DNA of 64,000 nucleotides from Acidimicrobiales bacterium (GTDB taxonomy: Bacteria; Actinomycetota; Acidimicrobiia; Acidimicrobiales; Bin134), in NCBI GenBank assembly GCA_965115985.1, contig OZ220474.1, positions 2,396,909-2,460,908 on the forward strand. The letters run 5' to 3'. Under the pieces are notes generated by a model. The model ran no database searches and had not been told where the DNA came from. It was given only the letters and a program-made list of their open reading frames with translations. The translations under genes and the position numbers were made by a program. Positions within the stretch are counted from its first letter, which is position 1. The number at the start of each line of letters is the position of its first letter. Shown piece by piece: positions 5,239 to 36,575 of the stretch.

Positions 5239-5411
5239 AGTCCTACTGGTCGCAGGGCGCGGGGTTTGATGACGAGTCCTACTGGTCGCAGGGCGCGGGG
5301 TTTGGGGACGAGTCCTACTGGTCGCAGGGCGCGGGGTTTGATGACGAGTCCTGCTGGTCGCAGGGCGCGGGGTTTGGGGACGAGTCCTACTGGTCGCAGG
5401 GCGCGGGGTTT
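5239..5411. repeat. 36-bp tandem repeat x4.8 (right half of the IS-split array; alternating gat/ggg variants)
   Basis: Same unit as 3805-3958. Joining 3958 to 5242 restores a seamless 9-copy array. Confidence 0.95.
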
Positions 5412-5860: not shown

Positions 5861-6103
5861 GTCAGCAGCTAGCTCCCACGGTCGGCGCGAGGATCGAGTG
5901 GCTAGCTCCCACGGTCGGCGCGAGGATCGAGCGGCTACCTCCCACGGTCGGCGCGAGGATCGAGCGGCTACCTCCCACGGTCGGCGCGAGGATCGAGCGG
6001 CTACCTCCCACGGTCGGCGCGAGGATCGAGCGGCTACCTCCCACGGTCGGCGCGAGGATCGAGCGACTAGCTCCCACGGTCGGCGCGAGGATCGAGGCGG
6101 CCA
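5861..6103. repeat. 33-bp tandem repeat x7 filling the whole intergenic gap
   Basis: Unit ggctacctcccacggtcggcgcgaggatcgagc with contiguous copies and no spacers. It carries the 80-codon ORF 5862..6104. Confidence 0.95.
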
Positions 6104-8991: not shown

Positions 8992-10445
8992 GGCGTTCTC
9001 CTACGACCGGGGAGGACCAGTTCGGCCGTTCCGGTCACGTGCGGTCCTCGGCTGTTCAGGCCCTGGAAGGAGACCTCGGCGGTTCCCACTCCATCGACCT
9101 CCTGCTTGGCGGTTACCGACCCCGACAGGGTCATGCAGTCGTAGGGATAGTTGGGGGCACCGAGGCGGATCCTCAGGTTCTTGAGGATGGCGTCGGGACC
9201 GGCCCAGTCACCGATGTAGCGGGCCGAGAGGCCGCTGGACGTCAGGATGTTCATGAATATGTCCTCGGACCCCTTGCGGATCGCCATGTCCCGGTCGTGG
9301 TGGACGTCCTGATAATCGCGTGACGCAATGGCGGTGGACACGATCAACGTGGGGGTGAGCGGGATCGGGCACAGCGGCAGCTCGTCACCCACGTTCACCT
9401 CGTCGAGGGTGAGGGTGGTCGGATTGCGGGGGATCCGGGCGGGCCGGAACATCGGCAGGCTCACGTCCTCGTGGGTCGGCATGTGCCAGACCTCGAGGGG
9501 CATGCCCACCTTGAGCTGTTCCGATCGGCAGTCGGTAATGTTGGTGACCAGGCGGACACCCTCCTCCAGCTCGACCAGTCCGATGTTCAGCGGGTAGTCG
9601 AACGAGGGGACCCGGGGGTGGTGGGCCACCACGTAGGAATAGAGAGTGCCCCTACCGGAGACCACGCGGTACCCCATGGAGGTGGCCCCGCAGGCCGGGC
9701 AGCGGTTACCGGGCGGGTGCTGGAGATACCCGCACTCCCGGCACTGCTGGATTCGCAGCTCACCGACCCGGCTGCCCTCCCAGAAGAAGTCGGTATCCTG
9801 GTTGCGACCGGGGCGGGGGCGCGGCGGCCGCTCGCCGGTGTCGTTGCTGGTGCTACTGCTGCTGGTGCCGCTTTTTCCACTGGTGCTGCCGGCGGTGGCG
9901 CTGCTGCGTCCCGTGCCGGGGCGGAACTTGAGGATGCGGAAGAACATGGATCCGACGTGGCCGCCGTGCTGGTCGTGGTACTCGGCCTCGGTGGTCACGA
10001 AGTGGCCGATGCCCAGGGCGGTTTGCTTCTCGTCCGAGACCTCCACCAGCTTCACGGTTCCGGTGAGGTGGTCGCCGAGCCGGAGATAGCGGTGGTAGAC
10101 GTGCTCGGAGTTGGTGGCCACCACGCCGACGTATCCGGCTTGGTCCAGCATGGCGTACACCCCCGAGGCGGGATCCTGGGGGTCGTCCTCCCGGGGGACC
10201 AGCCCGATCATGGTCCAGGCGTTGAGCATGGCCGGAGGGGCGGTGATCTCCCCGTGGGGGCCCTGGCGAGCGGCGTCGGGATCGGTGTATAGGGGGTTGG
10301 CGTCGTCCATGGCGTCGCACCAGTGGTGGATCATGGGTTGGTTGACCGGATCACGAGCAGTGGTCGGGGTGCCGGTGCGGCCGACCTGTCGACGCAGCTC
10401 GGCTACGAACGCCTCCTTCTGCTCGTCGGTCATCCCATCGCTCAT
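8988..10445 (-). CDS. MaoC_N hotdog - DUF35 (Zn-ribbon/OB) - MaoC hotdog fusion protein
   Basis: CRECGYLQHPPGNRCPACG ribbon plus OB segment sits between two hotdog-like halves. ATG 10445 is preceded by GGGGGGAG. The track start 10577 lies inside the upstream repeat array. Confidence 0.7.
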   Translation of the reverse strand: MSDGMTDEQKEAFVAELRRQVGRTGTPTTARDPVNQPMIHHWCDAMDDANPLYTDPDAARQGPHGEITAPPAMLNAWTMIGLVPREDDPQDPASGVYAMLDQAGYVGVVATNSEHVYHRYLRLGDHLTGTVKLVEVSDEKQTALGIGHFVTTEAEYHDQHGGHVGSMFFRILKFRPGTGRSSATAGSTSGKSGTSSSSTSNDTGERPPRPRPGRNQDTDFFWEGSRVGELRIQQCRECGYLQHPPGNRCPACGATSMGYRVVSGRGTLYSYVVAHHPRVPSFDYPLNIGLVELEEGVRLVTNITDCRSEQLKVGMPLEVWHMPTHEDVSLPMFRPARIPRNPTTLTLDEVNVGDELPLCPIPLTPTLIVSTAIASRDYQDVHHDRDMAIRKGSEDIFMNILTSSGLSARYIGDWAGPDAILKNLRIRLGAPNYPYDCMTLSGSVTAKQEVDGVGTAEVSFQGLNSRGPHVTGTAELVLPGRRRTP

Positions 10446-10491
10446 GCTCCCCCCTTTGCTGCCGCGCACGTTAGCGCGGCCGGCACTGGGG

Positions 10492-10742
10492 GGTGGAAAG
10501 TGAGGCGCATCGGTCATCTTCTGGGGGGTTGTCTTGGTCAGCGCGACTGGCATTGCGGGGTGGAAAGTGAGGCGCATCGGTCATCTTCTGGGGGGTTGTC
10601 TCGGTCAGCGCGACTGGCATTGCGGGCAGAAGGTGAGAGTGCGGGCATCGGTCATCTTCTGGGGGGTTGTCTCGGTCAGCGCGACTGGCATTGCGGGCAG
10701 AAGGTGAGAGTGCGGGCATCGTAGGTGCGGTGTTGGAGCGGG
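10492..10742. repeat. 67/71-bp tandem repeat x3.7 copying the 3' end and stop of fpg
   Basis: ...tcagcgcgactggcattgcgg... recurs with unit starts at 10492, 10559, 10626 and 10697. The real stop is at 10676-10678. Confidence 0.9.
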
Positions 10743-11508: not shown

Positions 11509-11747
11509 TGCACGGGTGGGGCTTATTGGCGGGAACCGAGGAGGTCGGTGGTGACGCGGTGCAGGAGCGGGGTTTATCGGCGGGAACCGAGGAGGTCGGT
11601 GGTGACGCGGTGCAGGAGCGGGGTTTATCGGCGGGAACCGAGGAGGTCGGTGGTGACGCGGTGCAGGAGCGGGGTTTATCGGCGGGAACCGAGGAGGTCG
11701 GTGGTGACGCGGTGCAGGAGCGGGGTTTATCGGCGGGAACCGAGGAG
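11509..11747. repeat. 51-bp tandem repeat x4.6 copying the 3' end and TAA stop of the nucleotidyltransferase gene
   Basis: ttatcggcgggaaccgaggag... occurs at 11523 (variant), 11574, 11625, 11676 and 11727 (native). Confidence 0.95.
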
Positions 11748-12533
11748 GGTGCGGGCAATCTCCAGGTCCTCGGGGTTGGTGATCCCGATCCAGGATTCGT
11801 CGGTGGTGACGACCCGGACGGTGAGGGCCCCGGCCTCCATTCGGGCCGCGACGGCCCGGGGGAGGAGGTACTCGGCGGTGGGACTGTGGCGGTTCTCCTC
11901 GAGGAAGCGGGCGAAGCCGTCCCGCAGGCTGTTCATGAACCCGGGGGGGAAGGCCCACAGGTTCATGGACACCAGGGTGTCGGCGGGAAAATCGTTGCCG
12001 GCTCGAGATATCCCCTCCTGTTCGGTGATGCCGGTGAGACGATCACCGTCCACGCGGCACACGCCCCGGGTCACCGAGCCCTCGGCCGGCAGGGTGCGGT
12101 CGAGGTGGTAGCCGCACAACCAGGCCTCGTTGTCGGCCATTGTTCTCATGGCTCGGGCCAGGGCGGTGTACGCGGTGGGGCCGTAGTAATCGTCGGCGTT
12201 GCCCACCATGAACGGGCCGGTCACCGCCCCGGCGGCCGACAGCACGGCGTGGGCCGTGCCCCATGGCTTCGGGCGGGGAGGGCCGTGCTCGTCCTGGCGC
12301 ACGAAGGTCACCTCCAGATCGGCGGGTAGTCCGCCGCGAGCCTCGAAGTGTCGGTTCACGTCGGCCTCGATGTCGCTTCGCACGATGAGCACCACTCGGT
12401 CGGCCCCCGCGGCCCGGGCATCGGTAATGGCGAAGTCCAAAAAGGCCTCGCCCCGGGGTCCCACCCGGGCGAGTTGCTTGGTCCCGCCGAAACGCGACCC
12501 CAGCCCCGCGGCCATCACTATGAAAGTGAACAT
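11727..12533 (-). CDS. Nucleotidyltransferase-family protein (sugar-phosphate NTP-transferase fold)
   Basis: N-terminal MAAGLGSRFGG..K signature. 268 aa. Confidence 0.75.
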   Translation of the reverse strand: MFTFIVMAAGLGSRFGGTKQLARVGPRGEAFLDFAITDARAAGADRVVLIVRSDIEADVNRHFEARGGLPADLEVTFVRQDEHGPPRPKPWGTAHAVLSAAGAVTGPFMVGNADDYYGPTAYTALARAMRTMADNEAWLCGYHLDRTLPAEGSVTRGVCRVDGDRLTGITEQEGISRAGNDFPADTLVSMNLWAFPPGFMNSLRDGFARFLEENRHSPTAEYLLPRAVAARMEAGALTVRVVTTDESWIGITNPEDLEIARTLLGSRR

Positions 12534-15600: not shown

Positions 15601-16065
15601 GGTTCGAGCCATGACCAGGGCATGCTCCTGATCGGGATCGCTCAGCAGTTTGCTCAGGTACTCCTCCCAACGGTCCTCGAACGTTTCGTTCGGGCTCACC
15701 TCGAGGTGGGGGGGTAGTCCGGCCTCGATGGCGTGCTGGGAAAGGATGCGGAGTGCGAACCCGTGGAGGGTGGTGATGGCTGCGCCGTCCAGATGGTCGA
15801 GGGCCTCGGAGTGTTCCCCCGAGGCGGAGAGCTGCCGGCGCAGGCGGTTCCTCAGTTCGGCGGCGGCCTTCTCGGTGAAGGTGATGGCCGCGATGTTCTC
15901 CATGGCCACCCCGGAGTCGAGCAGGGCCAGCACCCGGTTGATCAGCTCGGTGGTCTTGCCCGACCCGGCCCCGGCCTCCACGAACAAGGTGGAGTCCAGC
16001 TCGGTGGCGATGGCTTCCCGGTCGGCCTGGTCGCGGGCGGTGTCGTCGGGGGGTGGCGAGGTCAT
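12589..16065 (-). CDS. UvrD-type helicase with C-terminal RecB-type nuclease (AdnB/AddA-like subunit)
   Basis: Walker A GAGSGKT, UvrD motifs, and a C-terminal GYIDLLYR...VVVDFKTD nuclease motif. It overlaps the upstream partner gene by 4 nt. Confidence 0.85.
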   Translation of the reverse strand: MTSPPPDDTARDQADREAIATELDSTLFVEAGAGSGKTTELINRVLALLDSGVAMENIAAITFTEKAAAELRNRLRRQLSASGEHSEALDHLDGAAITTLHGFALRILSQHAIEAGLPPHLEVSPNETFEDRWEEYLSKLLSDPDQEHALVMARTLEIKSSHLRDLSQFLDNNWDLVAQRMGEVPPPTGPIELPDIRGLSLPERFTEIAALESYCRDPSDKMLPKLRTIGERAELLHEAGSDREQMLRILLLPGLSFTRAGRKNNWPDEDSGLPSLSEVTDRLAQLGGAIEDLRNRVADGLIRRLTLVLGAFTLEAAEDRTHKGVLEYHDLLVLTRNLLRHPEHGQEVRRTLAQRYQRLLLDEFQDTDPIQIELAKLIAAPPDDTRDWPELQDEPGHLFYVGDPKQSIYRFRRADIALFARAGQSRTAVRKSLTRNFRTVEPIIGWINALFDGFMTAPSNPKLLYVQPDYQALDSVRGRPPMGPPVTVLGHEHPPKTNIRSLREIEAREVAQVVLTAIGRHWSVSSGRDENGRDHWRPAKLEDVCILVPTRTSLPQLEEALEQHDIPYRIEAGSLVWTGRIIREVMATVRALADPTDEVSLVNALRSPVFGCGDDDLFDFKVTHEGRWSYMAPRPALLPEDHPVGEAMAWLADLHSRVRWLDPSELLERIVRERRLLESSCFGPRRSRDVWHSLGLLIDQARRFEESGGRGLREFVAWANRKIDERAREPDAILSETDDDAVRITTIHAAKGREFPIAIVSGTYAQGRSTPPTVLWPPEGGFEVGFNKKLRTKGFNQCEEHEKTMGSAEQIRLLYVALTRARDHLVVSTHRLERSESGRGGPSMADMVADHAAELPPAELWFGRLHSQQSSAKFKPDWESEREAALDRARKASATSPSAIARAEAETGGVVPVAAPDDPDHLDLDQDAHLLGSQDHRPDDPDVDQDSPRVITAMVGLDHLDLDQDEPGDDDRRSSGSRGRGGTKVGRAVHGVLQTVGLDVDPAGLLPVAETQAETEGIPGDVRTVRSLAESVLRSGTVKEAAVADHWKELFVAAPVEGRVVEGYIDLLYRSDNGLVVVDFKTDDIHDDEARRAKIDRYKLQVAAYCLMVEQVVDEPVARGMLVFARKGQPAEEVAITDDDLASARQEVRRRLEQCSLS

Positions 16066-19000
16066 TGTTTGTCCGGTTCCTCTTCCGGTTCTTCTTCCGA
16101 GTCATCGGGTGGTTCGGCCAGATGGCGGTAGCCGGCCAGCTCGTCTCGTTCCTGCATGGTCTCCCACTCCCGGCGGCGGTCCTGGGTGCCGAGCCGGTCG
16201 GCGTTGCAGTAGTCGCAACGCTGGCTGTACTGCCCTTCCGTACGATCGGGTTGGGGTCGGTCGCAGAACACCCCGGCCTCGATGCCCTCGGTGATGGCGT
16301 CCACCACCGTGCGGAAACGATCCATCGCTCCGTCGTCCAGCGGGTAGCCGAAGGTATGGAACCCCCCGTCCTCGGTGACGAACCAATACTGGGTGGTGAC
16401 CGGGGCATCGGGGTTCTCGGTGAGTGCCCGGGCGGCCAACCCGTAAACCGGAAGCTGGAGCCGGGTTCCCCGTTGGACGGGGTCCCCGTTCTGGCTGCGG
16501 GCATCCAGGTCCCGGTAGCCATCGGCCTTGCCGGTCTTGTAGTCGGTGACCAGCAGTTTGTCGCCCCGGCCCTGATCGACCCGATCGGCCCGGCCCCTGA
16601 ACCGAACCTGCCGACCGCGGGGAAGCTCCACGGTTACCGCCTCCAAATCGTCGTCGGGCGCTCCGAACCCCAACTCGCCGGCGATGGTGGTGACGCCCGT
16701 CCGGCGACGCTGCTCGTAGTCCTCCATCAAAAAGCGGCGCAGATCGAACAGAATCCGGCTTCGGTCGTAGCCCCAGAACACCGGCGAGCCGGTCAGCCCC
16801 CGGGCCTCGGCCTCCTCGCACTGCTGCGTCCCGATGGCGACGAGCCGGTCCTGCTGCTCCCCGCTCCAGCGTTGGCCCGGTGGCGGAACCCGGCTGGCTT
16901 CCAGTTGCTCGCACAGGAACAGTTCGAGGATCCGATGAATCAGCGAGCCCTTCTCCGAGGCCGAGATCTCCGACAGTTCCTCGGGTTGATCCGCGGCCTG
17001 CACCCGCAGGACGTGCCGGAACAGGTAGCGCATCGGACAATCGGCCCACATCTCCAGGCTGGTGGGCGATACTGCGTCCCCGATCAGTCCGGCGGTGTCG
17101 AGGCCGGCCAGGTTGCCGTCGAAGCGGGTGAACCGATCCGAGGCCCGGGCGGCCATCATCTCGGCTCCCCGGGCCAGGATCGGATCATCGTCCGGCACCT
17201 GGTATCCCCTCTGGTTCGTGCGGGCGACGGGGTCGGGGCTTAGGGGTGGCTGCTCGGCCTGATTCGTATGGGCGACAAGGTCGGGGTCTTCGTGTGGCTG
17301 TCCGGCCTGGTTCGTGCGGGCGACGGGGTCGGGGCTCAAGGGTTGTTGGCGTGGGGGCCGTCCGGCCTGGTTCGCATGGGCAATGGCCTGCAACCGGAAC
17401 TCCTGGGCGGTGGCGGGGAAATCGGCGTGAAGCACCCTCCCCGAGAACGAAGGGACGTGCTCGAACCATTCGGGGGTCCGGTCGCCGGCCAGGCTCTCCA
17501 GGTTGGTGCTGTCCACCGGTTGTCCGGCCAGGGCGGTGGCGGTGTCCAGGAGCCAGCGGGACGGGTACTGTTCACAGGCCTCTCGCGAATTGCTTCGGGC
17601 GTAGATCAGGGTGCTGATCTCGGTTGAAGCCAGCACGACCAGAAAGTGGCGGTGCTGTTCGTCCAATCGGTCGGAGATCAGGGTCAGGTCGCCGCCGGTG
17701 GCCCGGCGTTCCCGGTCGGGAAGCAGGGGGTTGTCGGCGGGACTGTGGGGGAACGTTCCCTCGGCCATGCCGATGAGGATCGCCCGGCGCAGCTCCATTC
17801 CCGTGGAGGCACCGATCAGCTCGGTCAGCACCCCGTGACCTACCCGGCCGGTGCGCTTGGTGGGGGTGGCCAGCTCCGAGGTCAAGGCGTGGCGGAAGGC
17901 AGTCGGCCGGGGAGATGCCTCGATCCGGTCCAGGTTGGCCAGGCCATCGAGGACGTTTTGGATCTGATCGGCCGCATGCTGCTCGGACTCGGGCCAGGCG
18001 GCCACGGCGCTGTCGTCGGCCAGGTACTTGCCGATCAGGTCCTTGATCCACTGGCACCACGCTTCCCAGGTGGTCGGTTCGGGATCGGGGGACAGGTCGT
18101 CGATGAGTTCGGCCATGAACCGGGCGAGGGAGTCGGTGTGGTCGGCTTCTCGCCGGTGCCACTCGGCCCATCTCTCGGTCTGGTCGGGATCGTCTTGCTC
18201 TCGTTCCCCGGCTTCCCGCAGCTCCTGGGCATAGCCCCCGAGCCGGGCCCTCCACTGCTCGGTGCCCCGAACCACTCCTGCTCGGCGGGCCACTCGCTCC
18301 CAGGCCACCACCGGGATGCCCACAGGTCGGGTCTGTCCGGTGGTCTCGGTCGAAGCCATCGGGGAGGGGGCCGCCACCGACAGCAGGTCGAACACCTCGT
18401 CGCGACGGAAGTCGCGGTTGTGCAGATTGAGCAGGGCCAGCACTCCCCGTCCCACCAGCGATTCGGCCAGTGTGCGTCCGCTGGGGCCGTTGAACGGGAT
18501 GCCGGCTGCGGTTAGGTGATCCTGCAAATGGCGGATGGTGGACATGCCGCTGCCACTGAGGACGGCGATTCGATCCAAGGGAATGCCTTCTTGGGTTGCG
18601 TTGACCACCTCACGAACCGCCACCCGTACTTCCTCGTCGGCACCGGCGGTGCTGATGATTCGTTGTCCGTGGGCAGGGCTGATGCCCGCGTCGACTTCCT
18701 CGTCGGCACCGGCGGTGCTGATGATTCGTTGTCCGTGGGCAGGGCTGATGCCCGCGTCGGCTTCCTCGTCGGCACCGGCGGTGCTGATGATTCGTTGTCC
18801 GTGGGCAGGGCTGATGCCCGCGTCGGCTTGAGGTTCTTCCCCCATGCGGCCGATCGACTCCCGCACGGCGGCGTCGGCCTTGTGGTTTCCGGTGAGTCCG
18901 GCAACCACCGCGACCGTTGTTCTGCGGGCCAGGGCACCGATCATGCGCCCCTGGGACCGGGTGACCCGTTGGGGGAGGTGGATTATCACCGGGCCGAGTT

Positions 19001-19577
19001 CTTCGAGGACGTCGTCGATCGGTTCTGATTCGATCGGTTCTGATTCCAGCGCGGCGATGGCCAGGTGGTTGAGATCCTGGCCGTCGCACCAGCGACCCTT
19101 CAGTCTGTCCCTCACCTGGCGGTGGACGCGGACCACCTCGGCGGCTCGTCGGCTCTGCGAGGCCAGCATGTCCAGTTCCTGGTCGGTCAGGTCGCGAAGG
19201 TCGCGGTAGGCCTGCACCAGGGCCTGCTCGGTGGCGGGATGGCGGGCCGAGGCCCCGAACAGGCCGGGGTCGGTCTCCAGCACGTTTCTCACGGTCGCGC
19301 CGATCACCGGTCCGGGGAGCGGCCTGCGCCCATCCTCTCCACCCACCCGAGAACCGGCCAGCCGCTCGGCCAGGTCGAACAGCTTGAGGAAGTTCACCGC
19401 GGCAATTCCCCGCTTCTTGGCCCCGATGACTCGCCGGATGGCCACACCGGCCATGTTGGTGGGCACAACCACGGTGACTGCTCGAAAGGGGTCGTCGTTC
19501 TTGTATTCGCGTACCAGCGTTTCGAGTTGCTCGCAAGCAGGTCTACCGTACGATGTGTATTCGATTCGTAAGGCCAT
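16062..19577 (-). CDS. AdnA/AddB-like helicase-nuclease subunit (degenerate motor, PD-(D/E)XK nuclease with Cys cluster)
   Basis: No GxxGK[ST] was seen by eye. The C-terminal part has LLVTDYKTGK plus WADCP...C-x16-CDYC cysteines. 1171 aa. Confidence 0.75.
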   Translation of the reverse strand: MALRIEYTSYGRPACEQLETLVREYKNDDPFRAVTVVVPTNMAGVAIRRVIGAKKRGIAAVNFLKLFDLAERLAGSRVGGEDGRRPLPGPVIGATVRNVLETDPGLFGASARHPATEQALVQAYRDLRDLTDQELDMLASQSRRAAEVVRVHRQVRDRLKGRWCDGQDLNHLAIAALESEPIESEPIDDVLEELGPVIIHLPQRVTRSQGRMIGALARRTTVAVVAGLTGNHKADAAVRESIGRMGEEPQADAGISPAHGQRIISTAGADEEADAGISPAHGQRIISTAGADEEVDAGISPAHGQRIISTAGADEEVRVAVREVVNATQEGIPLDRIAVLSGSGMSTIRHLQDHLTAAGIPFNGPSGRTLAESLVGRGVLALLNLHNRDFRRDEVFDLLSVAAPSPMASTETTGQTRPVGIPVVAWERVARRAGVVRGTEQWRARLGGYAQELREAGEREQDDPDQTERWAEWHRREADHTDSLARFMAELIDDLSPDPEPTTWEAWCQWIKDLIGKYLADDSAVAAWPESEQHAADQIQNVLDGLANLDRIEASPRPTAFRHALTSELATPTKRTGRVGHGVLTELIGASTGMELRRAILIGMAEGTFPHSPADNPLLPDRERRATGGDLTLISDRLDEQHRHFLVVLASTEISTLIYARSNSREACEQYPSRWLLDTATALAGQPVDSTNLESLAGDRTPEWFEHVPSFSGRVLHADFPATAQEFRLQAIAHANQAGRPPRQQPLSPDPVARTNQAGQPHEDPDLVAHTNQAEQPPLSPDPVARTNQRGYQVPDDDPILARGAEMMAARASDRFTRFDGNLAGLDTAGLIGDAVSPTSLEMWADCPMRYLFRHVLRVQAADQPEELSEISASEKGSLIHRILELFLCEQLEASRVPPPGQRWSGEQQDRLVAIGTQQCEEAEARGLTGSPVFWGYDRSRILFDLRRFLMEDYEQRRRTGVTTIAGELGFGAPDDDLEAVTVELPRGRQVRFRGRADRVDQGRGDKLLVTDYKTGKADGYRDLDARSQNGDPVQRGTRLQLPVYGLAARALTENPDAPVTTQYWFVTEDGGFHTFGYPLDDGAMDRFRTVVDAITEGIEAGVFCDRPQPDRTEGQYSQRCDYCNADRLGTQDRRREWETMQERDELAGYRHLAEPPDDSEEEPEEEPDKQ
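17211..17375. repeat. Degenerate in-frame 48-60-bp repeats inside the AdnA-like gene
   Basis: ctggttcgtgcgggcgacggggtcgggg... recurs three to four times. The protein has repeated NQAG.PP...SPDPVARTNQ. Confidence 0.7.
18629..18826. repeat. 66-bp in-frame tandem repeat x3 inside the AdnA-like gene
   Basis: Copies at 18629, 18695 and 18761 are nearly identical and encode DAGISPAHGQRIISTAGADEE(A/V) x3. Confidence 0.95.
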
Positions 19578-19663: not shown

Positions 19664-20863
19664 TCAGAAGTGGGTGAGTTGGGTGTGGGCCAGGCGGCCC
19701 ATGGCGGGGGCCATGAGGGCTTGTTCTCGGAGTGCGTTTCGGGCCAGGTAGTGGGCGAGTTGGGCGTCGTCGGTGAGGTCGAGGTGATGTCGGTCGGCCT
19801 GGTCCTGTTCGGCCAGTGTCGGGCCGATGCGGTCGACCATGTCGAGGTAGCGAACCAGGCGGGCGATTGATTTGGCCCGGACTGCGGCGTACCCGTCCAG
19901 GGCGGGGGTGATGACCGTGCGCAGGTCGTCCAGAACGGCGGCGTAGATGTCGCTCACCTCGGTGTCGGGGGGTTCGGGCAGCTCCGGGGGTTCCACCACC
20001 ACCCCCAGGGCCCGGCAGACCAGCTCGGCGGTCACTCGCCGATGGAGAACGGCGAACAGCTTGCCCATGCCCGGGTCGCCACCGGCGGTACCCGGAACCC
20101 CCAACCCGACCAGGTTGCGCACCTGGCAGGCCAGTTGCCAGTACCGCACCCGCTCGACGTCCACCGGGCCGTCGTACCAGCCGAACGCGGTATCGACGTC
20201 CACGAACGGGGTGAGCATGGCCCGTACCGTTATCCAGGCCAGATCCTCCATGGGGTCACCGACGTGGGCCAGTTCCCAGTCGCACAGTCCGGTCACCCGC
20301 CGGCCGTCGTGCATCACGTTGCCCGGCCCCAGATCACCATGAACCAGCACCGCCCGCTCGGGCGGCCCGGGCGCAGCCTCGGCCAGGTGGCGCAGACCGA
20401 GGTCGATCAGTGGATCGGCCTCGGGGCAGTGTTCGTCGTAGATGCGAGTCCACCGGGCCAGGTCGTCGACCTCCAGGTGATCGGGCGGTTCCAGAGCATG
20501 GAGGGCGTTCACCTGACCCATGAAGTCCTGGGCCACCTCCGCCTCGTCCAGCGGCCCCGGAGCGCCCTCGAGGAACTCCAGCAGCAGGACTCGTCCATCG
20601 GGGTCGGCACCGTAGGATGCGGCCGCCCTCACGGGGGTGTCGGCCAGCCAGTCGTACACCCGGGCCTCGCGGGCCAGGTCGTATCCCACGATGGTCAGCG
20701 GAGACGTTCCGTTGTCCATTCTCAAAAAACGGCGCTGGCCGTCCAGCAAGCCCACCACCCACGCCTGGCGGGACGCCCCTCCCGGTATCCGCACCGCCTC
20801 GACGACCGACTGCCCGCAGCGATGCTCGATCCAGTCGATCAGCTCCCGGTCGAGGTTGTTCAT
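19664..20863 (-). CDS. Phosphotransferase-family kinase (APH/choline-kinase fold)
   Basis: LVHGDLGPGNVM catalytic loop and DWE motif. ATG 20863 (MNNLDRELIDWIEHRCG) is the only repeat-borne start followed by the gene body. Confidence 0.8.
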   Translation of the reverse strand: MNNLDRELIDWIEHRCGQSVVEAVRIPGGASRQAWVVGLLDGQRRFLRMDNGTSPLTIVGYDLAREARVYDWLADTPVRAAASYGADPDGRVLLLEFLEGAPGPLDEAEVAQDFMGQVNALHALEPPDHLEVDDLARWTRIYDEHCPEADPLIDLGLRHLAEAAPGPPERAVLVHGDLGPGNVMHDGRRVTGLCDWELAHVGDPMEDLAWITVRAMLTPFVDVDTAFGWYDGPVDVERVRYWQLACQVRNLVGLGVPGTAGGDPGMGKLFAVLHRRVTAELVCRALGVVVEPPELPEPPDTEVSDIYAAVLDDLRTVITPALDGYAAVRAKSIARLVRYLDMVDRIGPTLAEQDQADRHHLDLTDDAQLAHYLARNALREQALMAPAMGRLAHTQLTHF

Positions 20864-21117
20864 CGGGTGGATCCCGCCTGGCGTCCCCCACCGATCCAGT
20901 CGATCAGCTCCCGGTCGAGGTTGTTCATCGGGTGGATCCCGCCTGGCGTCCCCCACCGATCCAGTCGATCAGCTCCCGGTCGAGGTTGTTCATCGGGTGG
21001 ATCCCGCCTGGCGTCCCCCACCGATCCAGTCGATCAGCTCCCGGTCGAGGTTGTTCATCGGGTGGATCCCGCCTGGCGTCCCCCACCGATCCAGTCGATC
21101 AGCTCCCGGTCGAGCAT
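20827..21117. repeat. 65-bp tandem repeat x4.4 containing the kinase start codon and first 12 codons
   Basis: cgatccagtcgatcagctcccggtcgaggttgttcatcgggtgg... occurs at 20827, 20892, 20957, 21022 and 21087 (partial variant). Confidence 0.95.
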
Positions 21118-21501
21118 TGGGTCAGTCCGGCTCTTCGCGTTTATGCGGGGAGGGGGGTGTTTTAGGGGTATCCATGTTTTGGGTGGGGGCCTCGCCGATT
21201 CTTGTGCTCGCCGGTTCTTGTGACTGTCACGTAGTCGAGGAGTCGGGAGGCCCTTGGTGGTCGAGGATAGTTGTTTGTCGGGTTCGCCGGGGATGCCTCG
21301 TTGGCCGTCGATCCGTTCCACATCGTGCGCCTCGGGGTTCGAGCCCTCGACGAGGGCCGCCGACACACCCCCAACGAGATCACCGGTTGTAGGGGCAGAA
21401 AACCGGACCCGGCTCCACCGAGCAAGGAAACTGCTGGTAACAGCAGCCAATCGCTACCGGCCAACAACCATGCCAAACCAATATTCCGGCCCCCAAACGA
21501 C

Positions 21502-21533
21502 CGGTGCCCCGGACCGGAAGGTCCGGGGCACCG
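21502..21533 (-). terminator. Strong hairpin downstream of the LPXTG gene
   Basis: cggtgccccggacc-ggaa-ggtccggggcaccg forms a perfect 14-bp stem. On the minus strand it is followed by gtcgttt. Confidence 0.5.
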
Positions 21534-21557
21534 AGTATTCAGTTCAGGAAAATAACG

Positions 21558-22082
21558 CTACAGGGTGCGTAGTCTTCGGCTGAGGCCGAGCACCATCAGG
21601 CCGGCAAGCAACACCGACACAGCGATGACGGCGATCAGCGGAGCGTTGGAACCGGTATTGGGCAACATGTCCATGTCATCCATGTCACCGCCGATCATTA
21701 CCGAAGCACTGGCGCTTTCCCCATCCGGCACCAATTGGAACAGCAAGAAGGTCACGCCGTCTTCGCCGACCTCCACGTCTTCGATTGTGTCGGAGTAGGT
21801 GCCGCCTTCCAAGCTCACAGGCACCCCAAGACCTCCGCAATACTGCGTCAATCCCGCCATGTCGGTAATGAGAGACGTATCGCCGGTGTTGCACACCGCA
21901 AGGTTCACACTGGAAACGGTGAAACCCGATGCGCTTATCGTGAAGTCGTAGGTGCCGGCTTCCGGTACCGAAGCGGGATCGACCGTCATGGTTTGGCCGT
22001 CCTGGGCCGAGGCGGAGCCGGCGAACAAGAAGCCGGCCAACGCCACCGCCAAGGCAACGAAAATCAATTTGTGTTTGGTCAT
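21558..22082 (-). CDS. Sortase-anchored surface protein (signal peptide + LPNTG + TM + basic tail)
   Basis: MTKHKLIFVALAVALAGFLFAGSASA signal. The C-terminus is LPNTGSNAPLIAVIAVSVLLAGLMVLGLSRRLRTL. An AAGGAG site lies 8 nt upstream of ATG 22082. Confidence 0.85.
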   Translation of the reverse strand: MTKHKLIFVALAVALAGFLFAGSASAQDGQTMTVDPASVPEAGTYDFTISASGFTVSSVNLAVCNTGDTSLITDMAGLTQYCGGLGVPVSLEGGTYSDTIEDVEVGEDGVTFLLFQLVPDGESASASVMIGGDMDDMDMLPNTGSNAPLIAVIAVSVLLAGLMVLGLSRRLRTL

Positions 22083-22248: not shown

Positions 22249-23187
22249 TCAGCCTGCTGGTTCGGAACGGGTCCCGGAAATCAGTTCCCTCGCCGGAGCG
22301 TCGGCCCGCAGCTTGCCCGCCGCATCTCGCTCGAGCACGTGGTCGGTGCCCTCGGGGCAATGGGCGACGAAGGGGCACCAACCGCACAGGGGGCCCACGG
22401 TGGCCGAGAACTCCTGCGAGATGCAGCTATCCAGGATCGCCAACCATGTGGCTCGCAGCTCCGTGGTGGCCTCGTCCAGGTTCTCGTCGGTGATCTCGAC
22501 CTCGACCACCTTCTGCCCCAGGTAGAGCAATTGGGCCTTCACCGGCTTGCTGCCCTCCGCCTCGGTCAATGCCGCCGCGTAAAGCAGCATCTGGGTGACG
22601 TAGTTGGACGAAAACCGCTCGGAGGGGGCTTTGCCCGATTTGTAGTCGGTAACCACCAGGCCCTCGTCGGTTTCGTCGACCCGGTCGATGATGCCCCGGA
22701 ACGGCACCTTGTTTACCTCCACCCGAACGTCCTGCTCGGTGGCTGCGACCCTCACCTCGCGGGGATCCTCCAATTCCCAGAGGCCTTCGATGGCCTTCCA
22801 ACCGTTGATGCGGAAGTCCAGTCCGCCCCGCTCGTCCAACTCCAGTCCCTGGTAATCGGAGCTGGCCTCCATGGTGGGCCAGAGCTCACGAGCCAGCTTC
22901 TTGGCCCGTTCCACCGTGCGGTTCTCCACCGGTTCCTGCATCAACCTCTCCAGCACCATGTGGGCGAAGGTGCCGGTGACCGCGGCCTCGCCGGGAGGAT
23001 CGGGCAGGCGATCCACGTAGCGGAACTTCCACCGTCGGGCACACTCCCGGAACGAGGATGCGCTGGACGGCGAAAGATATTTGGGCGTGTAGCGCTCGGG
23101 AATCTCCAACAGGACCTCCGATGGGGTTTCCCGCGATTCTTCGTCGGTGGCCTCGGCGGCTGGTGCTGCTGGTTTGGTGATGGTCAT
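22249..23187 (-). CDS. PD-(D/E)XK nuclease, RecB/Cas4-like with 4-Cys cluster
   Basis: IIDRVDE...VVTDYKSGK, QMLLYA, N-terminal C (FRECARRW) and C-terminal CGWCPFVAHC. Confidence 0.8.
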   Translation of the reverse strand: MTITKPAAPAAEATDEESRETPSEVLLEIPERYTPKYLSPSSASSFRECARRWKFRYVDRLPDPPGEAAVTGTFAHMVLERLMQEPVENRTVERAKKLARELWPTMEASSDYQGLELDERGGLDFRINGWKAIEGLWELEDPREVRVAATEQDVRVEVNKVPFRGIIDRVDETDEGLVVTDYKSGKAPSERFSSNYVTQMLLYAAALTEAEGSKPVKAQLLYLGQKVVEVEITDENLDEATTELRATWLAILDSCISQEFSATVGPLCGWCPFVAHCPEGTDHVLERDAAGKLRADAPARELISGTRSEPAG

Positions 23188-23209: not shown

Positions 23210-25441
23210 TCAGAAATCGAGGGCGTCGCGGTCGACCAGGTTGCTGTGGGCCACCAGGAAGTCCTTGCGGCGGCCCACGTCGGACCCCATCAGGGTCTCG
23301 AACATCTCGTCGGCGGCGGTGCCGTCGTCCAGGGTGAGCCGGCGCAGGGTGCGGGTGGTCGGGTCGAGGGCGCACTCGGCCAACTCGTCGGTGTCCATCT
23401 CTCCCAGCCCCTTGAACCGGGACCAACGAATGTTCTCGGCCTTGCGGTTGCCCCGGGCCAGCTCGGCGGTTTTTTGGTCCCGCTCGGCATCGGACCACGC
23501 CCGATGGGTTCGGTCGCCCACTTTGGCGGTGTACAGCGGGGGCTGGGCGGCGAACACCCGGCCCGCCTCCAGCATCGGACGCATGAACCGGTGGATGAGG
23601 GTGAGCAGCAGGCAGCGGATGTGACTGCCGTCCACATCGGCGTCGCACAGGATGATGATGCGCCCGTACCGGGCCTTGGCCAAGTCGAAGCCGTCGCCCG
23701 AACCGGCCCCCATGGCGGTGAACAGGGCCTGGGCCTCGGCATTGTCCAGCACCTGCTTCACCGACGACTTGGCTGCGTTCACCACCTTGCCCCGCAGCGG
23801 GAGGATGGCCATGTTCTCGGCGTTGCGCCCGGCCTTGGCCGGCCCGGCGGCCGAGTCGCCCTCCACCAGGATCAACTCGGAATCCGGGCCGTGGACCCGG
23901 CAGTCGGCCAGCTTGTCGGGCATCCCGGTGGAGCCCAACGACGCGGCCCGTCGTCGGTTCTCCAGGGTCTGACGGGCCGACACCCGGGTCACCACCGCGT
24001 CGACGATCTTGGACTGCAAGGCGGTCACATGGCTCTTGGGACCGGTTTGGAACCAGCTCTCCAACCCGTCCTTGAGCACGTTGTAGACGATGGACTGCAC
24101 CGGTGGGGTGCCCAGCTCCTGTTTGGTCTGGCCCCGGAATTGCGGTTCGGGCAGGGTGACCTTGATCGCGGCCACCAGGCCCTCCTGCACGTCCTCCCGC
24201 TGGGCCCGGTCGTGGCCCTGCTTGGCCAGGCGGGCCAGCTTCTTGGAGTCGGCCAGCAGGCTGTCGTTGATGGCCCGGGTCAGGGCCCTCTCGAAGCCGG
24301 TCAGGTGGGTGCCGCCGTGGGGGGTGGGGATGGTGTTGACGAACGTGGCCACCCGGGTGTCGTAGTCCTTCACCCAGCGCATGGCGATGTCCACCTGGCA
24401 CCGGCGCTCCACCATGGTCATGGCTCCGTCCACCGGGACCTTCTCCTCGAAGGCCCCCTCCCCGGGAATGGAGACGATCTCGGTCACGGTCTCCGACGTC
24501 GACAGGTGGCCCACCAGGTCGGCCAGCCCGCCGTGGGAGATCAGATCGACCGGCTCGTTGTCGTGGCCCCGTCGCTTGTCCTCCAGCGTGATCCGCAATC
24601 CGGGTACCAAAAAGCAGGCCTGTTGGGCTCGCTCCCTGATGGATTCGTAGTCCACCGTTGCATCGGGGTCGAACATGTCCAGGTCGGGCCAGAAGCGGAT
24701 ACGGGTGCCGGTTCTGCGGGTGGTGCGGGCCTTGCGGAGCTTGTGGCCCCCGACGAAGCGGTCCCCGACGAACTGGCCCGCCTTCTGGCCGGAGAACCAG
24801 AGTTGCCAGGTGGCCCCGTCCCGGTCCACCTCGGCCCTGAGCCGGGTGGACAGGGCATTGACCACCGAGGCCCCCACACCGTGCAGCCCGCCGGAGGCAC
24901 TGTAGACCCCGCCCCCGAACTTGCCGCCGGAGTGCAGCTCGGTGAGCACCACCTCCAGGGCCGACACCTTCTTGGTGGGGTGCGGATCGATCGGGATGCC
25001 CCGACCGTTGTCGCCCACCTCGATCGAACCGTCGGCATGGAGGGTCACGTCGATACGGGTGGCGAATCCGGCCCCGGCCTCGTCCACCCCGTTGTCGATC
25101 AGCTCCCACACCAGATGCATGAGGCCGTCACCGCCGGTGCTCCCGATGTACATCCCCGGGCGTTTGCGAACCGCTTCCAGCCCCTCCAGGGTGACGATGT
25201 CGGCGGCGTCGTAGCGGACGCGGCCTTTGGCTTTGCCTTTGCCGCGGCCGTTGCCCTTGCTATTGCCGCGGCCGTTGCTCTTGTCGTTGCCGCCGCCGTT
25301 GCTCTTGTCGTTGCCGCGGCCGTTGCTCTTGCCTTTGTCGTTGCCGTTGCCATTGCCATTGCCATTGTCGGCCTGCGCCGCGGTGAGGAGGTTGACGTCT
25401 CGGCTCGGGGCGGGGGAAGCGGAGTCGGTTCGGGTCACCAT
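23210..25441 (-). CDS. Type IIA topoisomerase ATPase subunit (GyrB/ParE/TopoM-like) with G/N/K-rich N-terminal extension
   Basis: GHKL ATPase, TOPRIM (EGDSAAG) and PLRGK motifs. ATG 25441 overlaps the stop of the A subunit (ATGgTGA). Confidence 0.9.
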   Translation of the reverse strand: MVTRTDSASPAPSRDVNLLTAAQADNGNGNGNGNDKGKSNGRGNDKSNGGGNDKSNGRGNSKGNGRGKGKAKGRVRYDAADIVTLEGLEAVRKRPGMYIGSTGGDGLMHLVWELIDNGVDEAGAGFATRIDVTLHADGSIEVGDNGRGIPIDPHPTKKVSALEVVLTELHSGGKFGGGVYSASGGLHGVGASVVNALSTRLRAEVDRDGATWQLWFSGQKAGQFVGDRFVGGHKLRKARTTRRTGTRIRFWPDLDMFDPDATVDYESIRERAQQACFLVPGLRITLEDKRRGHDNEPVDLISHGGLADLVGHLSTSETVTEIVSIPGEGAFEEKVPVDGAMTMVERRCQVDIAMRWVKDYDTRVATFVNTIPTPHGGTHLTGFERALTRAINDSLLADSKKLARLAKQGHDRAQREDVQEGLVAAIKVTLPEPQFRGQTKQELGTPPVQSIVYNVLKDGLESWFQTGPKSHVTALQSKIVDAVVTRVSARQTLENRRRAASLGSTGMPDKLADCRVHGPDSELILVEGDSAAGPAKAGRNAENMAILPLRGKVVNAAKSSVKQVLDNAEAQALFTAMGAGSGDGFDLAKARYGRIIILCDADVDGSHIRCLLLTLIHRFMRPMLEAGRVFAAQPPLYTAKVGDRTHRAWSDAERDQKTAELARGNRKAENIRWSRFKGLGEMDTDELAECALDPTTRTLRRLTLDDGTAADEMFETLMGSDVGRRKDFLVAHSNLVDRDALDF
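25215..25372. repeat. In-frame low-complexity 24-27-bp repeats (GNDKSNGRG-type)
   Basis: gccgcggccgttgctcttgtcgtt variants are repeated about six times in the 5' end of the B-subunit gene. Confidence 0.8.
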
Positions 25442-28047: not shown

Positions 28048-28968
28048 TCATAGTTGTTGTGTTGGGGCGGCGGGGATGCGGGTGCGGCTGAGGCGCACGG
28101 TCTGGCCGAAGGAACGAACGGCGGCTCGAAGCGCTCTCAGGCCGAGCATGGACACCTGTCCGGTGGTGCGATCCCGGTGGGGCACGGGCACTTCGGCCAG
28201 GTGGCCCCCGGATCGGGCCAGCATCCCCGAGAGCACCACGTTGGGGGCGAAGGTGTCGTCGGGGATTAGCGCCACCAACCGGGCCAGCACGGTCGAGCGC
28301 ATGAGTCGGTAGGGGCAGTTCACGTCGGCCAGCTTGCAGCCGAAGGCGGCTCGGGCGGTGAACCGGGCCACCCGGGAGATGGCCCGCCGCCCCGGTGACT
28401 GGTTCCGATTGGTGCGGATGCCGATGACCGCGTCCACCTCGCGGCGCAGGTTCCACAGCTCGCCGAATGCGTCGGCGGGCATCTCGTCGTCGGAGTCGGT
28501 CTGGAACACCCAGTCGGCGGTGATCACCCCCCGTCGGTAGCCCCGCAGCACGGTGGGCCCGTGTCCGCTATTGGCCTTGACGTCCACCACCAGGCAAGGG
28601 TGGTGCTCGGCCACCTCCCGCAGGATCTCCTCGCTGGCATCGGTGGCCCCGTCCACGATGGTCACCAGCTCGTAGCGGATTCCCAGGCGGTCGAGAACCC
28701 CGAGCCAGTCATCGACCACCTTGGCGATGATCCCCTCCTCGTTGTGTACCGGCATGACCACGCTCAGATCCAGCCGTTCGTCCGGTGGGGTGGTGGTCAT
28801 TGCCGCCGGTTCCAGGCGTTCGTCCGGTGGGGTGGTGGTCATTGCCGCCGGTTCCAGCCGTTCGTCCGGTGGGGTGGTGGATGTCACTTCGGGCTCGGTA
28901 CCGGCCGATGATTGCCGGTGGGGGTTGCCAGTGGTTGATGCCGCAGTCGCCTCGGGTTCGGCGGTCAC
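28048..28968 (-). CDS. Family-2 glycosyltransferase (Dpm1/polyprenol-phosphate type)
   Basis: VVMPVHNEEG...DGATD...DSDDE motifs. GTG 28968 overlaps the SDR stop (GTGA). Alternative ATGs lie inside the repeat (for example 28800). Confidence 0.8.
   Translation of the reverse strand: MTAEPEATAASTTGNPHRQSSAGTEPEVTSTTPPDERLEPAAMTTTPPDERLEPAAMTTTPPDERLDLSVVMPVHNEEGIIAKVVDDWLGVLDRLGIRYELVTIVDGATDASEEILREVAEHHPCLVVDVKANSGHGPTVLRGYRRGVITADWVFQTDSDDEMPADAFGELWNLRREVDAVIGIRTNRNQSPGRRAISRVARFTARAAFGCKLADVNCPYRLMRSTVLARLVALIPDDTFAPNVVLSGMLARSGGHLAEVPVPHRDRTTGQVSMLGLRALRAAVRSFGQTVRLSRTRIPAAPTQQL
28770..28890. repeat. 42-bp in-frame tandem repeat x2.9 in the GT2 N-terminus
   Basis: It encodes TTPPDERLEPAAM x3. 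Each copy carries an ATG. Confidence 0.9.
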
Positions 28969-29968: not shown

Positions 29969-30442
29969 GCTCTTTCCGTGCCAGTCGCTTCGCAGCTCGT
30001 CGGGGGCTTCGGGCACCGGGCCGCGCACCCACTGGGGTACGGCGGTTCGGGCGGTGATGAGCCAGCGGTCGCCGAATCGGGCCACGTCGTCGCAGTAGCG
30101 CAGCCCCAGGACGAGATCATCGATGCCCGACTCCTCCGGTTGCATGTGGTAGGCCACCGCGTAGGTCTCCACATGGCCCTCGTCGGCTCCCTCGACCAGA
30201 TCCACGTACTGGTTGCCCATCACGTGCAGGGTGGCCTCGAACTTGGCCAGCTCCTTTTCCGTCCAGTCCAGGTAGGGGTCCAGCGGCCCCGACACCACTG
30301 TCCCGTGGACGACGCAGTCGGGGTGGAAGTTGGATCGCACCAGGTCGAAATCGATGCGATCGATTCCCCGGGCGTACCGCTGGGGGAGATCCTTGATCAA
30401 CTCCCGATCCTTCAACCATTGCACCGTGGACTCGATGCTCAT
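29954..30442 (-). CDS. SnoaL/NTF2-like fold protein
   Basis: 162 aa. LIKDLPQRYARGIDRIDFDLVRSNFHPDCV is typical of SnoaL_4 proteins. Confidence 0.7.
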   Translation of the reverse strand: MSIESTVQWLKDRELIKDLPQRYARGIDRIDFDLVRSNFHPDCVVHGTVVSGPLDPYLDWTEKELAKFEATLHVMGNQYVDLVEGADEGHVETYAVAYHMQPEESGIDDLVLGLRYCDDVARFGDRWLITARTAVPQWVRGPVPEAPDELRSDWHGKSFRHG

Positions 30443-30495
30443 TGTTGCCTCCCTTGTCCCTGTTCGATCAGTTCTTGTCGCGCTACGGTTGCCCC

Positions 30496-35891: not shown

Positions 35892-36575
35892 ATGCAGGTA
35901 GATATTCGTCATGCTCCCAGTTTTGCGGTTGCCCGGTGCGTTCTGAGCGGTGGGGAACAGGTCAAGGTCGAGGCGGGGGCCATGTCGGCCCATTCCATGG
36001 GGATGTCGCTGGAGGCCAAGATCGATGGCGGGGTGTTCAAGGGGCTCAAGCGCAGCATCCTGGGTGGCGAGTCGCTGTTCTTGTCCACCTTCACCGCCCC
36101 GGCCGAGGGTGGTTGGGTGGATGTGGCCGCCAAGCTGCCCGGCGACCTGCGGGTACTCGAGTTGGACGGCTCGCAGGCGTGGGTGATCGAGCGGGGCAAC
36201 TGGCTGGCCTCCGATGCCTCGGTGGGGGTGGACACCAAGTGGAGCGGGTTCAAGTCGATGGTCGGCGGCGAGGGCGGTTTCATGGTTCACGCCGAGGGCA
36301 CCGGCAAGGTGGTGGTGGCCTCCTACGGGGCCATCGATGTGATCTCGCTGGCGGCCGGCGAGTCGGTGGTGGTGGATACCAGTCACATGCTGGCCTTCCC
36401 CGACACGGTTAGCTACGAGCTGCGTCGGGCGGTGGAGGGTCGCTCGATCCAGTCGATGAAGTCGGGCGAGGGCTTCGTATTCCACTTCACCGGCCCCGGC
36501 GACATCTTGACCCAGACCCGCAACCAGCAACAGCTCATCGCCTGGATCAACACCGAGATCGGTTCCCGGGAGTAG
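35892..36575 (+). CDS. AIM24/DUF124 (TIGR00266) family protein
   Basis: MQVDIRHAPSFAVARCVL..GEQVKVEAGAM...GESLF is characteristic of the family. Confidence 0.85.
   Translation: MQVDIRHAPSFAVARCVLSGGEQVKVEAGAMSAHSMGMSLEAKIDGGVFKGLKRSILGGESLFLSTFTAPAEGGWVDVAAKLPGDLRVLELDGSQAWVIERGNWLASDASVGVDTKWSGFKSMVGGEGGFMVHAEGTGKVVVASYGAIDVISLAAGESVVVDTSHMLAFPDTVSYELRRAVEGRSIQSMKSGEGFVFHFTGPGDILTQTRNQQQLIAWINTEIGSRE

Follow-up and report, generated by a model that had tools for sequence, protein, structure and literature searches.

A perfect 65-bp tandem array repeats the translation start of an APH-fold kinase gene in a minisatellite-rich stretch of an Acidimicrobiales genome

Here, we describe a tandem array at the 5' end of a kinase gene in a 64,000-nucleotide stretch of contig OZ220474.1 (positions 2,396,909 to 2,460,908) from the Acidimicrobiales bacterium assembly GCA_965115985.1. 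This whole stretch is referred to as the window, and positions are those of the window unless another sequence is named. The array consists of head-to-tail copies of a unit that is drawn from the adjacent unique sequence and includes the conserved first 12 codons of the kinase, and is not a dispersed element. The kinase, the array and the four short decoy open reading frames (ORFs) within it are arranged as follows.

19664..20863, minus strand: APH-fold kinase or phosphotransferase-family gene, 399 aa (Pfam APH PF01636, E 6e-21)
20827..21114, minus strand: 65-bp tandem array (Tandem Repeats Finder, TRF: period 65, 4.4 copies, 100% matches, 0 indels, score 576)
Repeat unit, minus strand: 29-nt leader (GGTGGGGGACGCCAGGCGGGATCCACCCG) plus kinase codons 1-12, as read from the sequence
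20860..20928, minus strand: decoy ORF 3, same as decoy ORF 1; its TGA (20862-20860) overlaps the kinase ATG (20863-20861)
20925..20993, minus strand: decoy ORF 2, same as decoy ORF 1 (ORF list and sequence)
20990..21058, minus strand: decoy ORF 1, MNNLDRELIDWIGGGRQAGSTR and stop; its TGA overlaps the following ATG
21055..21117, minus strand: decoy ORF 0, the variant copy (ATGCTCGAC...; MLDRELIDWIGGGRQAGSTR and stop); its TGA overlaps the ATG at 21058

Five ATGs lie in the array region on the minus strand (21117, 21058, 20993, 20928 and 20863), and 20863 alone opens into the 399-aa kinase ORF, in which the motifs HGDLGPGN and DWE are intact. The kinase frame is also open upstream to a GTG at 20956, which yields an alternative ORF of 430 aa. 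A protein search returned about 85 kinase orthologues with 70-80% identity and mostly 399 aa in length. Their N-termini follow the pattern M-x-x-L-D-R-E-L, and most begin M-S-E-L-D-R-E-L-L-A-W-V-E-E-C-C-G-Q or with near variants thereof. The N-terminus read from 20863, MNNLDRELIDWIEHRCGQ, is an exact fit to these proteins, and at the DNA level the start position is common to 30 orthologous loci. The orthologue N-termini thus support 20863 as the real kinase start, as had been proposed from the sequence. Because MNNLDRELIDWIEHRCGQ fits the orthologues, the arrangement at the last copy is the native one and the upstream copies are derived. Named orthologue matches were to Candidatus Poriferisocius sp. 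and other metagenome-assembled genomes of Acidimicrobiia or Acidimicrobiales, many of them complete chromosomes, and the host genome is taken as a Candidatus Poriferisocius-like member of the Acidimicrobiia of the sponge-symbiont type.

On the minus strand the region is laid out as A, X (Y X)x4, B, where X is the 28-bp sequence CTCGACCGGGAGCTGATCGACTGGATCG, Y the 37-bp piece GTGGGGGACGCCAGGCGGGATCCACCCGATGAACAAC, and B the unique kinase sequence beyond the last X, which reads on as AGCATCGCTGCGGGCAG; the native arrangement is Y-X-B. Each of the three full-unit starts (21058, 20993 and 20928; the final ATG is 20863) opens the frame ATG AAC AAC CTC GAC CGG GAG CTG ATC GAC TGG ATC GGT GGG GGA CGC CAG GCG GGA TCC ACC CGA TGA, translated as MNNLDRELIDWIGGGRQAGSTR and stop, whose TGA shares TG with the following ATG (cgATGA). 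Such cgATGA stop/start overlaps are found at 21058, 20993, 20928 and 20863, and all four decoy ORFs, 20-22 codons in length, close on a TGA that overlaps the ATG next in line. The 5'-most variant copy at 21117 reads ATGCTCGACCGG, its ATG running straight into X, and unrelated DNA begins beyond this 28-bp partial copy. No 16-mer of the 65-bp unit was found elsewhere within the window. A perfect periodicity over 288 bp is beyond chance, and the array is real. The anatomy given in the original prediction, i.e., a near-identical 4.4-copy array, identical 22-codon upstream ORFs (uORFs) chained by ATGA overlaps, and a variant most-upstream copy, is borne out in each of these points. The 100% identity among the copies likewise agrees with the proposed recent or homogenised expansion and fits the fast-changing arrays described below for related genomes.

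The unit has a single Shine-Dalgarno (SD)-like element, a weak AGGCGGG 10 nt before the AUG, and is free of TA dinucleotides. A protein-coding repeat was ruled out for both strands, since 65 is not divisible by 3 and the ORFs on the plus strand are shadow ORFs, atypical in their G+C content by codon position. The 288-bp array also contains 14 GATC sites, three per unit. A role of this cluster as a methylation or binding array was set aside as incidental, given that GATC is 2.2-fold over-represented across the window and that two of the three sites per unit arise from the I-D and W-I-G codons. Most other arrays in the window are without GATC, and CTAG, TTAA, CGCG and GCGC are strongly depleted window-wide.

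The kinase array is one of many minisatellites in the window. TRF returned 72 rows, which after overlap removal and with a period of at least 20 bp and at least 90% match correspond to 20 non-redundant arrays, or 3.1 per 10 kb. In 33 relatives, including many complete long-read chromosomes, the orthologous loci (7-21 kb) mostly hold 0-0.5 arrays per 10 kb, with intermediate densities in two of them (L005, 2.4 per 10 kb; L012, 1.4 per 10 kb). The 64-kb window holds about 23 young minisatellites, with periods of 24-72 bp and many of them 94-100% identical. An all-against-all blastn comparison of 24 array units recovered one related pair (3805/5239), in which the kinase array is not involved. As the units are, apart from this pair, mutually unrelated, the arrays represent local duplications and not a mobile family; a dispersed element resembling mycobacterial interspersed repetitive units (MIRUs) or miniature inverted-repeat transposable elements (MITEs) was ruled out on the same grounds.

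The arrays are concentrated at gene ends. Sixteen of the 23 do not lie fully inside a stop-to-stop gene interval; random placement would give 6.1 +/- 2.1, and a value of 16 was not attained in any of 20000 trials. The 12 arrays with a period indivisible by three all lie outside gene interiors, and the seven fully intragenic arrays all have a period of 3n. Several span stop codons or start regions, as listed here together with one intercistronic array.

10473-10721: stop-spanning array, ...CPQCQSR and stop
11518-11811: stop-spanning array, ...LLGSRR and stop
36540-36720: stop-spanning array, ...EIGSRE and stop
43313-43432: stop-spanning array, ...LALPYVP and stop
37696-37864, minus strand: start-region array, 62 x 2.7, of a ferrochelatase gene; the unit also has a TATCCT -10-like hexamer
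28769-28880, minus strand: start-region array, 42 x 2.7, in frame, of a family 2 glycosyltransferase (GT2) gene; repeats MTTTPPDERLEPAA
44169-44260, minus strand: start-region array, 47 x 2.0, directly upstream of a TIGR03083-family gene
5864-6101, minus strand: intercistronic MIRU-like array, 33 bp x 7.2, forming a single repeat-only ORF of about 80 codons

The 47-bp array has the same architecture as the kinase array. Each of its two units carries an ATG; the first decoy, MTDDPLIKRTPGGRQT, ends on a TGA that overlaps the ATG of the second, and the second, MTDDPLMKRTPG, ends on a TGA that overlaps the real ATG of the TIGR03083-family gene. In the intercistronic array, the ATG of the repeat-only ORF overlaps the stop of the upstream gene (TGATG), and its TGA lies 2 nt before the ATG of the next gene.

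The chaining of decoys follows from the period. Whenever the period is 3n+2 and the second codon has A as its first base, a decoy that runs into the next unit meets TGA as its first +1-frame codon, so that the ATGA overlap is automatic. In the window genes, stops occur 2.77 times per 100 codons in the +1 frame and 0.67 times in the +2 frame. For the kinase, the first +1 stop is met at codon 0 and the first +2 stop at codon 175. As the +2 frame is open over 175 kinase codons, decoy ribosomes on a 3n+1 duplication would pass the real start in the wrong frame and continue far beyond it. The product of a 3n duplication would instead gain repeats at its N-terminus, which is the situation of the GT2 array. 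All five start-region arrays with a period that is not a multiple of three have a period of 3n+2 (65, 62, 47, 41 and 23 bp, those of relatives included); 3n+2 is also found in 10 of the 12 such arrays of any position in the window, and in 14 of 18 when relatives are included. We hypothesize that a frame filter acts on these duplications, and the stop counts support it.

Further arrays of the window were noted in passing. The related pair, 3805-3958 (plus strand) and 5239-5411, 1.3 kb apart, shares a 36-bp unit that encodes DDESYWSQGAGF in one orientation and is inverted relative to similar flanking sequence (TGGAGTT.CCC.GGTTTGGTGGACA). In-frame arrays of 48 bp and 66 bp (17211-17343 and 18628-18829, minus strand) lie inside the gene of a 1171-aa PD-(D/E)XK protein (16062-19577), which is AdnA/AdnB-like as judged by its neighbours, and a 24-bp in-frame array rich in G, N and K (25219-25363) lies in the N-terminal extension of a gyrB-like gene (23210-25441). 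Three neighbouring genes of RCC1-repeat (PF13540) beta-propeller type (58696-60588, 62172-63920 and 55319-57469, all minus strand) are built of 111-bp (37-aa) repeats, with 13-14 repeat matches each. Eukaryote-like repeat proteins are often reported in sponge symbionts. A literature search for tandem-repeat-rich sponge symbionts or Poriferisocius returned nothing relevant.

Relatives show that ladders of this kind have arisen more than once. In L005 (OZ241836.1), a perfect 23-bp x 2 duplication, aaccggaggcgggcaATGAGCGA, covers the SD and ATG of the same kinase gene (9962-10008), and its upstream copy yields a uORF, MSETGGGQ and stop, whose TGA overlaps the true kinase ATG. In L012 (OZ241383.1), a 41-bp x 3.3 array lies at the GT2 start (1661-1795), with decoys MKSSSWPTKRRGQL that are ATGA-chained onto the real ATGAGTGAC start. 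Together with the two in the window, these are four independent AUGA ladders. The 41-bp array is bounded by imperfect 12-bp direct repeats, as predicted by microhomology-mediated tandem duplication (PMC8639346).

Mapping the flanks of the relatives' arrays onto the window further revealed that the same junctions are occupied repeatedly. Arrays at the GT2 start are present in five genomes, i.e., that of the window, L005 (3347-3415), L012, L022 (17452-17582) and L166 (145-231). The junction upstream of fpg holds arrays of 51 bp in the window, 65 bp in L012 (18839-19069) and 34 bp in L005 (20514-20582), all with different units. Kinase-start arrays are shared by the window and L005, as are arrays at the 3' end of gene 30397-32064. 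With about 40% of the junctions in that part of the window occupied by arrays, seven of about nine coincidences correspond to a p of about 0.03 by our own rough binomial estimate. The recurrence is suggestive of hot spots or of long-lived array sites.

Copy number can also be seen to change. Three contigs, each from a different sample (L163, L164 and L165), encode an identical kinase protein, and their flanks around the nuclease gene agree at 100% or 99.9%. The N-terminal part of the nuclease gene nevertheless holds a perfect 36-bp array with 6.1 copies in L163 (8863-9080), 4.1 in L164 (1604-1749) and 3.1 in L165 (8971-9081). As the copy counts differ on otherwise identical DNA, copy number in this clade changes faster than point substitutions accumulate. 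This polymorphism concerns the neighbouring nuclease array in a related species and not the kinase array, and it speaks for such arrays being real. Assembly errors are well known to occur at perfect repeats, and the kinase array or its copy number could in principle be an artefact of assembly or consensus calling. We consider this very improbable: related contigs from independent samples share an array with different whole-number copy counts, and the identical kinase protein lies on a 3.37-Mb contig, which suggests a long-read assembly. Moreover, the window arrays are of differing age (79-100% identity) and respect reading frames, unlike artefacts, and relatives of apparently the same kind of assembly, judging by contig names, hold few arrays.

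The region upstream of the array, which is specific to this lineage as far as the nuclease gene, contains the following features.

21264..21269, minus strand: TATCCT, candidate promoter element about 150 nt upstream of the first decoy ATG
21503..21532, minus strand: perfect 12-bp-stem hairpin, GGTGCCCCGGAC cttccg GTCCGGGGCACC, just after the upstream gene
21558..22082, minus strand: gene of a small secreted protein (about 174 aa) whose C-terminus carries an LPNTG-type sorting signal (ORF and sequence; lineage-specific)
22249..23187, minus strand: PD-(D/E)XK nuclease gene (Pfam and gene order in relatives)

In the relatives that share the gene order of the window (L001-L005, L012 and L023), a gyrB-like gene, the PD-(D/E)XK nuclease gene, the kinase gene and the gene of the large PD-(D/E)XK protein follow one another. 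The gap between nuclease and kinase is 31 bp and 41 bp in L001 and L002 and wider, up to about 160 bp, in the others. In the window it measures about 1.4 kb and contains the small-protein gene, the hairpin, about 380 bp without a convincing ORF, and the array. The small secreted protein had no Pfam match and no counterpart in the 33 orthologous loci (L001-L033), and no homology was found between the upstream region of the window and the orthologue leaders. Neither the 80 nt upstream of the array nor the whole 1.2-kb upstream region showed significant similarity to the unit (shuffle fractions 0.80 and 0.19, respectively). The spacer directly after the nuclease stop has only a weak likeness to the unit leader (19/25, position-specific P of about 0.04).

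The hairpin is likely a terminator that insulates the kinase from upstream transcription. Between it and the kinase, TATCCT is the only -10-like hexamer of the form TANNNT; none lies inside the array, and a sigma-70 consensus promoter scan around the kinase returned no sites, neither flanking nor within the array. Assuming that the kinase has its own promoter, the whole array most likely lies in its 5' leader. This leader is not of unusual RNA stability (minimum free energy z = -0.15 versus shuffles), and no Rfam match was obtained in the array, the only match in 20600-21700 being a sub-threshold small RNA (21499-21596) that overlaps the hairpin.

In most orthologues, a -10-like hexamer (TAGCCT or TAGATT) is conserved 3-7 nt ahead of the start codon, which suggests leaderless kinase mRNAs in those genomes; the unit in the window lacks this motif. 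On a separate note, the kinase gene of the majority clade (L006-L011, L013-L022 and L024-L033; about 9975-10003) is inverted relative to its neighbours, and a highly conserved GGCTTAGCCTGGG(C/T)GG stands directly before its GTG start, which fits a -10 element of a leaderless mRNA.

The array might then be outside the functional mRNA or act at the DNA level only. On this view, the kinase transcript would begin in the last unit or immediately ahead of it, or else separation from the ancestral operon would have left the kinase poorly expressed; the upstream copies would be inert or would alter promoter spacing. The motif of the orthologues speaks for this possibility, as do the lineage-specific gene and strong hairpin that part the kinase from its former upstream neighbour, and the empty sigma-70-type scan. 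However, the unit is without a TA dinucleotide and hence without TANNNT, and any promoter within it would recur in every unit. Furthermore, the kinase is presumably expressed, given its intact ORF, its catalytic motifs and its identity of about 80% to orthologues. We regard absence from the functional mRNA, or a purely DNA-level role, as distinctly unlikely.

The original prediction held that copy number sets the number of termination-reinitiation steps before the real gene. While the anatomy on which this reading was built stands, an obligatory cascade goes beyond the evidence: it assumes a linear path from the 5'-most AUG, whereas bacterial ribosomes initiate internally, and the real AUG has the same 29-nt context as the decoys. 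Obligatory steps are a notion taken from eukaryotic scanning, and bacterial translation does not require them.

We favor the explanation, which we judge probable, that the array is a young variable-number tandem repeat (VNTR), a tolerated by-product of a genome-wide duplication process filtered by selection, and not a dedicated regulator. It would have originated by local tandem duplication, through slippage or unequal recombination, of the 65-bp translation-initiation region of the kinase, in a genome that would produce such duplications unusually often. The array would do little harm and persist, as leader, start codon and ORF remain in their native form at the last unit. Ribosomes could load on any of the identical initiation regions. 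Those on decoys would enter the next unit in the stop-rich +1 frame, stop at the first possible codon, and be released or handed on at the next AUG through the AUGA termination-reinitiation geometry, instead of passing the kinase start in the wrong frame. We assume that ribosomes can also initiate directly at the last AUG, whose context is the same as in the presumed single-copy ancestor, which would make the cascade optional. The effect of copy number on kinase output is probably small or modest at most, or mildly positive if the decoys serve as extra loading sites. That unrelated arrays are concentrated at gene termini, several of them duplicating start or stop regions, argues for a general mutational process with a selective filter rather than for a regulator specific to this locus.

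It is tempting to see in the array an adaptive translational tuner, in which ribosomes enter mainly at the upstream AUGs of the leader, kinase output is set by the number of reinitiation steps or loading sites and a change in copy number provides heritable, reversible tuning. The ATGA geometry is perfect at every junction, the array has no -10-like hexamer and the nearest lies about 150 nt upstream, so that it is probably transcribed with the kinase, and the same architecture arose independently at the L005 kinase and at other genes. Recurrence of arrays at the same junctions in several species and the variable copy number of neighbouring arrays point in the same direction. Yet internal initiation should bypass the ladder, as the real AUG shares its upstream context with the decoys, and a selective filter on random duplications would leave the same architecture. 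In addition, stop-spanning and intergenic arrays, to which such logic does not apply, are at least as common in the window, and the leader has neither unusual structure nor a match to a known RNA family. Such a tuner seems unlikely to us.

Several points weigh against the by-product explanation that we prefer. The bias towards 3n+2 rests on few cases and extends, in weaker form, to stop-spanning and intergenic arrays, for which the frame argument does not obviously hold. Independent arrays at shared junctions in several species may reflect hot spots or positive selection and are not predicted by a purely neutral origin. The SD-like element of the unit is only weak, and direct initiation at the last AUG is an assumption. 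Further sequence of the same species for a comparison of copy number was not recovered: an exact-protein look-up of the kinase was empty, the 27-nt junction pattern had no match in metagenome contigs, and protein-guided scans reached at best 79% identity in genome contigs and 75% in metagenome contigs. Finally, whole copies are expected from a simple duplication, but the 5' end of the array has an additional 28-bp X that adjoins unrelated DNA and follows an in-frame ATG. A partial copy next to unrelated DNA implies that the history of the array includes at least one further event, such as a deletion or the insertion of the lineage-specific segment of about 1.4 kb. Truncation of the array, or a rearrangement that involved both its first unit and that segment, is the probable cause.

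The closest known counterparts are the MIRUs of mycobacteria. In these, Supply and colleagues reportedly described in 1997 short ORFs that overlap, at either end, a neighbouring stop or start codon. The kinase array resembles them in its 65-bp unit, its short ORFs and the ATGA overlap at each junction, and differs in that the blastn comparison of the 24 units revealed no dispersed family of related units. MIRUs form such a family, with about 40-50 loci possibly spread by insertion, whereas each array in the window has its own unit copied from a local gene end. Unlike in MIRUs, what is duplicated in the kinase array is the start codon and the N-terminal codons of the kinase gene itself, so that the decoy peptides are copies of the protein N-terminus. 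The 33-bp x 7.2 array at 5864-6101 is a closer MIRU look-alike. In Mycobacterium, likewise an actinobacterium, the MIRU-VNTR loci, for example the senX3-regX3 intercistronic repeats, have tandem units of 40-100 bp that lie between co-oriented genes or at their ends, are transcribed with the flanking genes and vary in copy number among strains (PMC3184786).

ATGA and TGATG overlaps are associated with tight termination-reinitiation coupling in bacteria, which, in the study by Huber et al. 2019 (PMC6728339), was strict in 13 of 14 tested gene pairs. The AUGA geometry of such pairs is the same as at every junction of the kinase array. Known coupled pairs consist of two different conserved genes, whereas the kinase array chains, up to four times, 22-codon duplicates that are unlikely to have a function of their own. 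In contrast to these pairs, its downstream AUG retains its own leader, and any coupling here is putative. In sum, the array shares features of MIRU-VNTR loci, but not their dispersed family, and it has the geometry of the coupled pairs but chains duplicates of the kinase N-terminus.

Regulatory uORFs and leader peptides, e.g., the uORF coupled to iraD (PMC5574718) and mgtA-type leader ORFs (PMC8092293), are likewise short ORFs in a 5' leader that are able to influence initiation at the main ORF. Such uORFs occur singly, are conserved, and are linked either with a sensor (CsrA, ions, amino acids) or with alternative RNA structures. In contrast, neither unusual structure nor conservation in the orthologues nor any sensing logic is seen in the kinase leader, and together with the lack of an Rfam match in the array this sets it apart from attenuators and riboswitches. 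Like the array, the contingency loci of Neisseria and Haemophilus have hypermutable tandem repeats at the 5' end that gain and lose whole units reversibly. These loci phase-vary by switching the reading frame or the promoter spacing. In the kinase array, each unit has its own ATG, the last unit is always in the kinase frame, and there is no ON/OFF switch.

As a single locus, the array is of moderate interest. It amounts to a natural experiment on how bacterial ribosomes divide between direct initiation and reinitiation, with one to five identical, AUGA-chained initiation regions before an intact gene. Gene callers may choose extended or decoy starts at such loci, for example the 430-aa alternative of the kinase. 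The greater interest lies in the pointer to recurrent, terminus-biased minisatellites in a lineage that resembles sponge symbionts. Young minisatellites occur in the window at about one per 3 kb and cluster at gene ends. If this holds genome-wide, tandem duplication would be unusually frequent, a feature that only long-read assemblies reveal, and there would be a clear view of selective filtering, with 3n periods inside genes and apparently 3n+2 periods at starts. A bolder proposal, to which we assign a low probability, is that a still active process in this lineage preferentially duplicates gene starts and stops and hits the same junctions again in different species, and that the surviving 3n+2 AUGA ladders are undescribed leaders for ribosome loading, tunable by copy number. 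If such a class of AUGA ladders is real, it would offer an uncultured symbiont fast, reversible, gene-by-gene tuning of expression.

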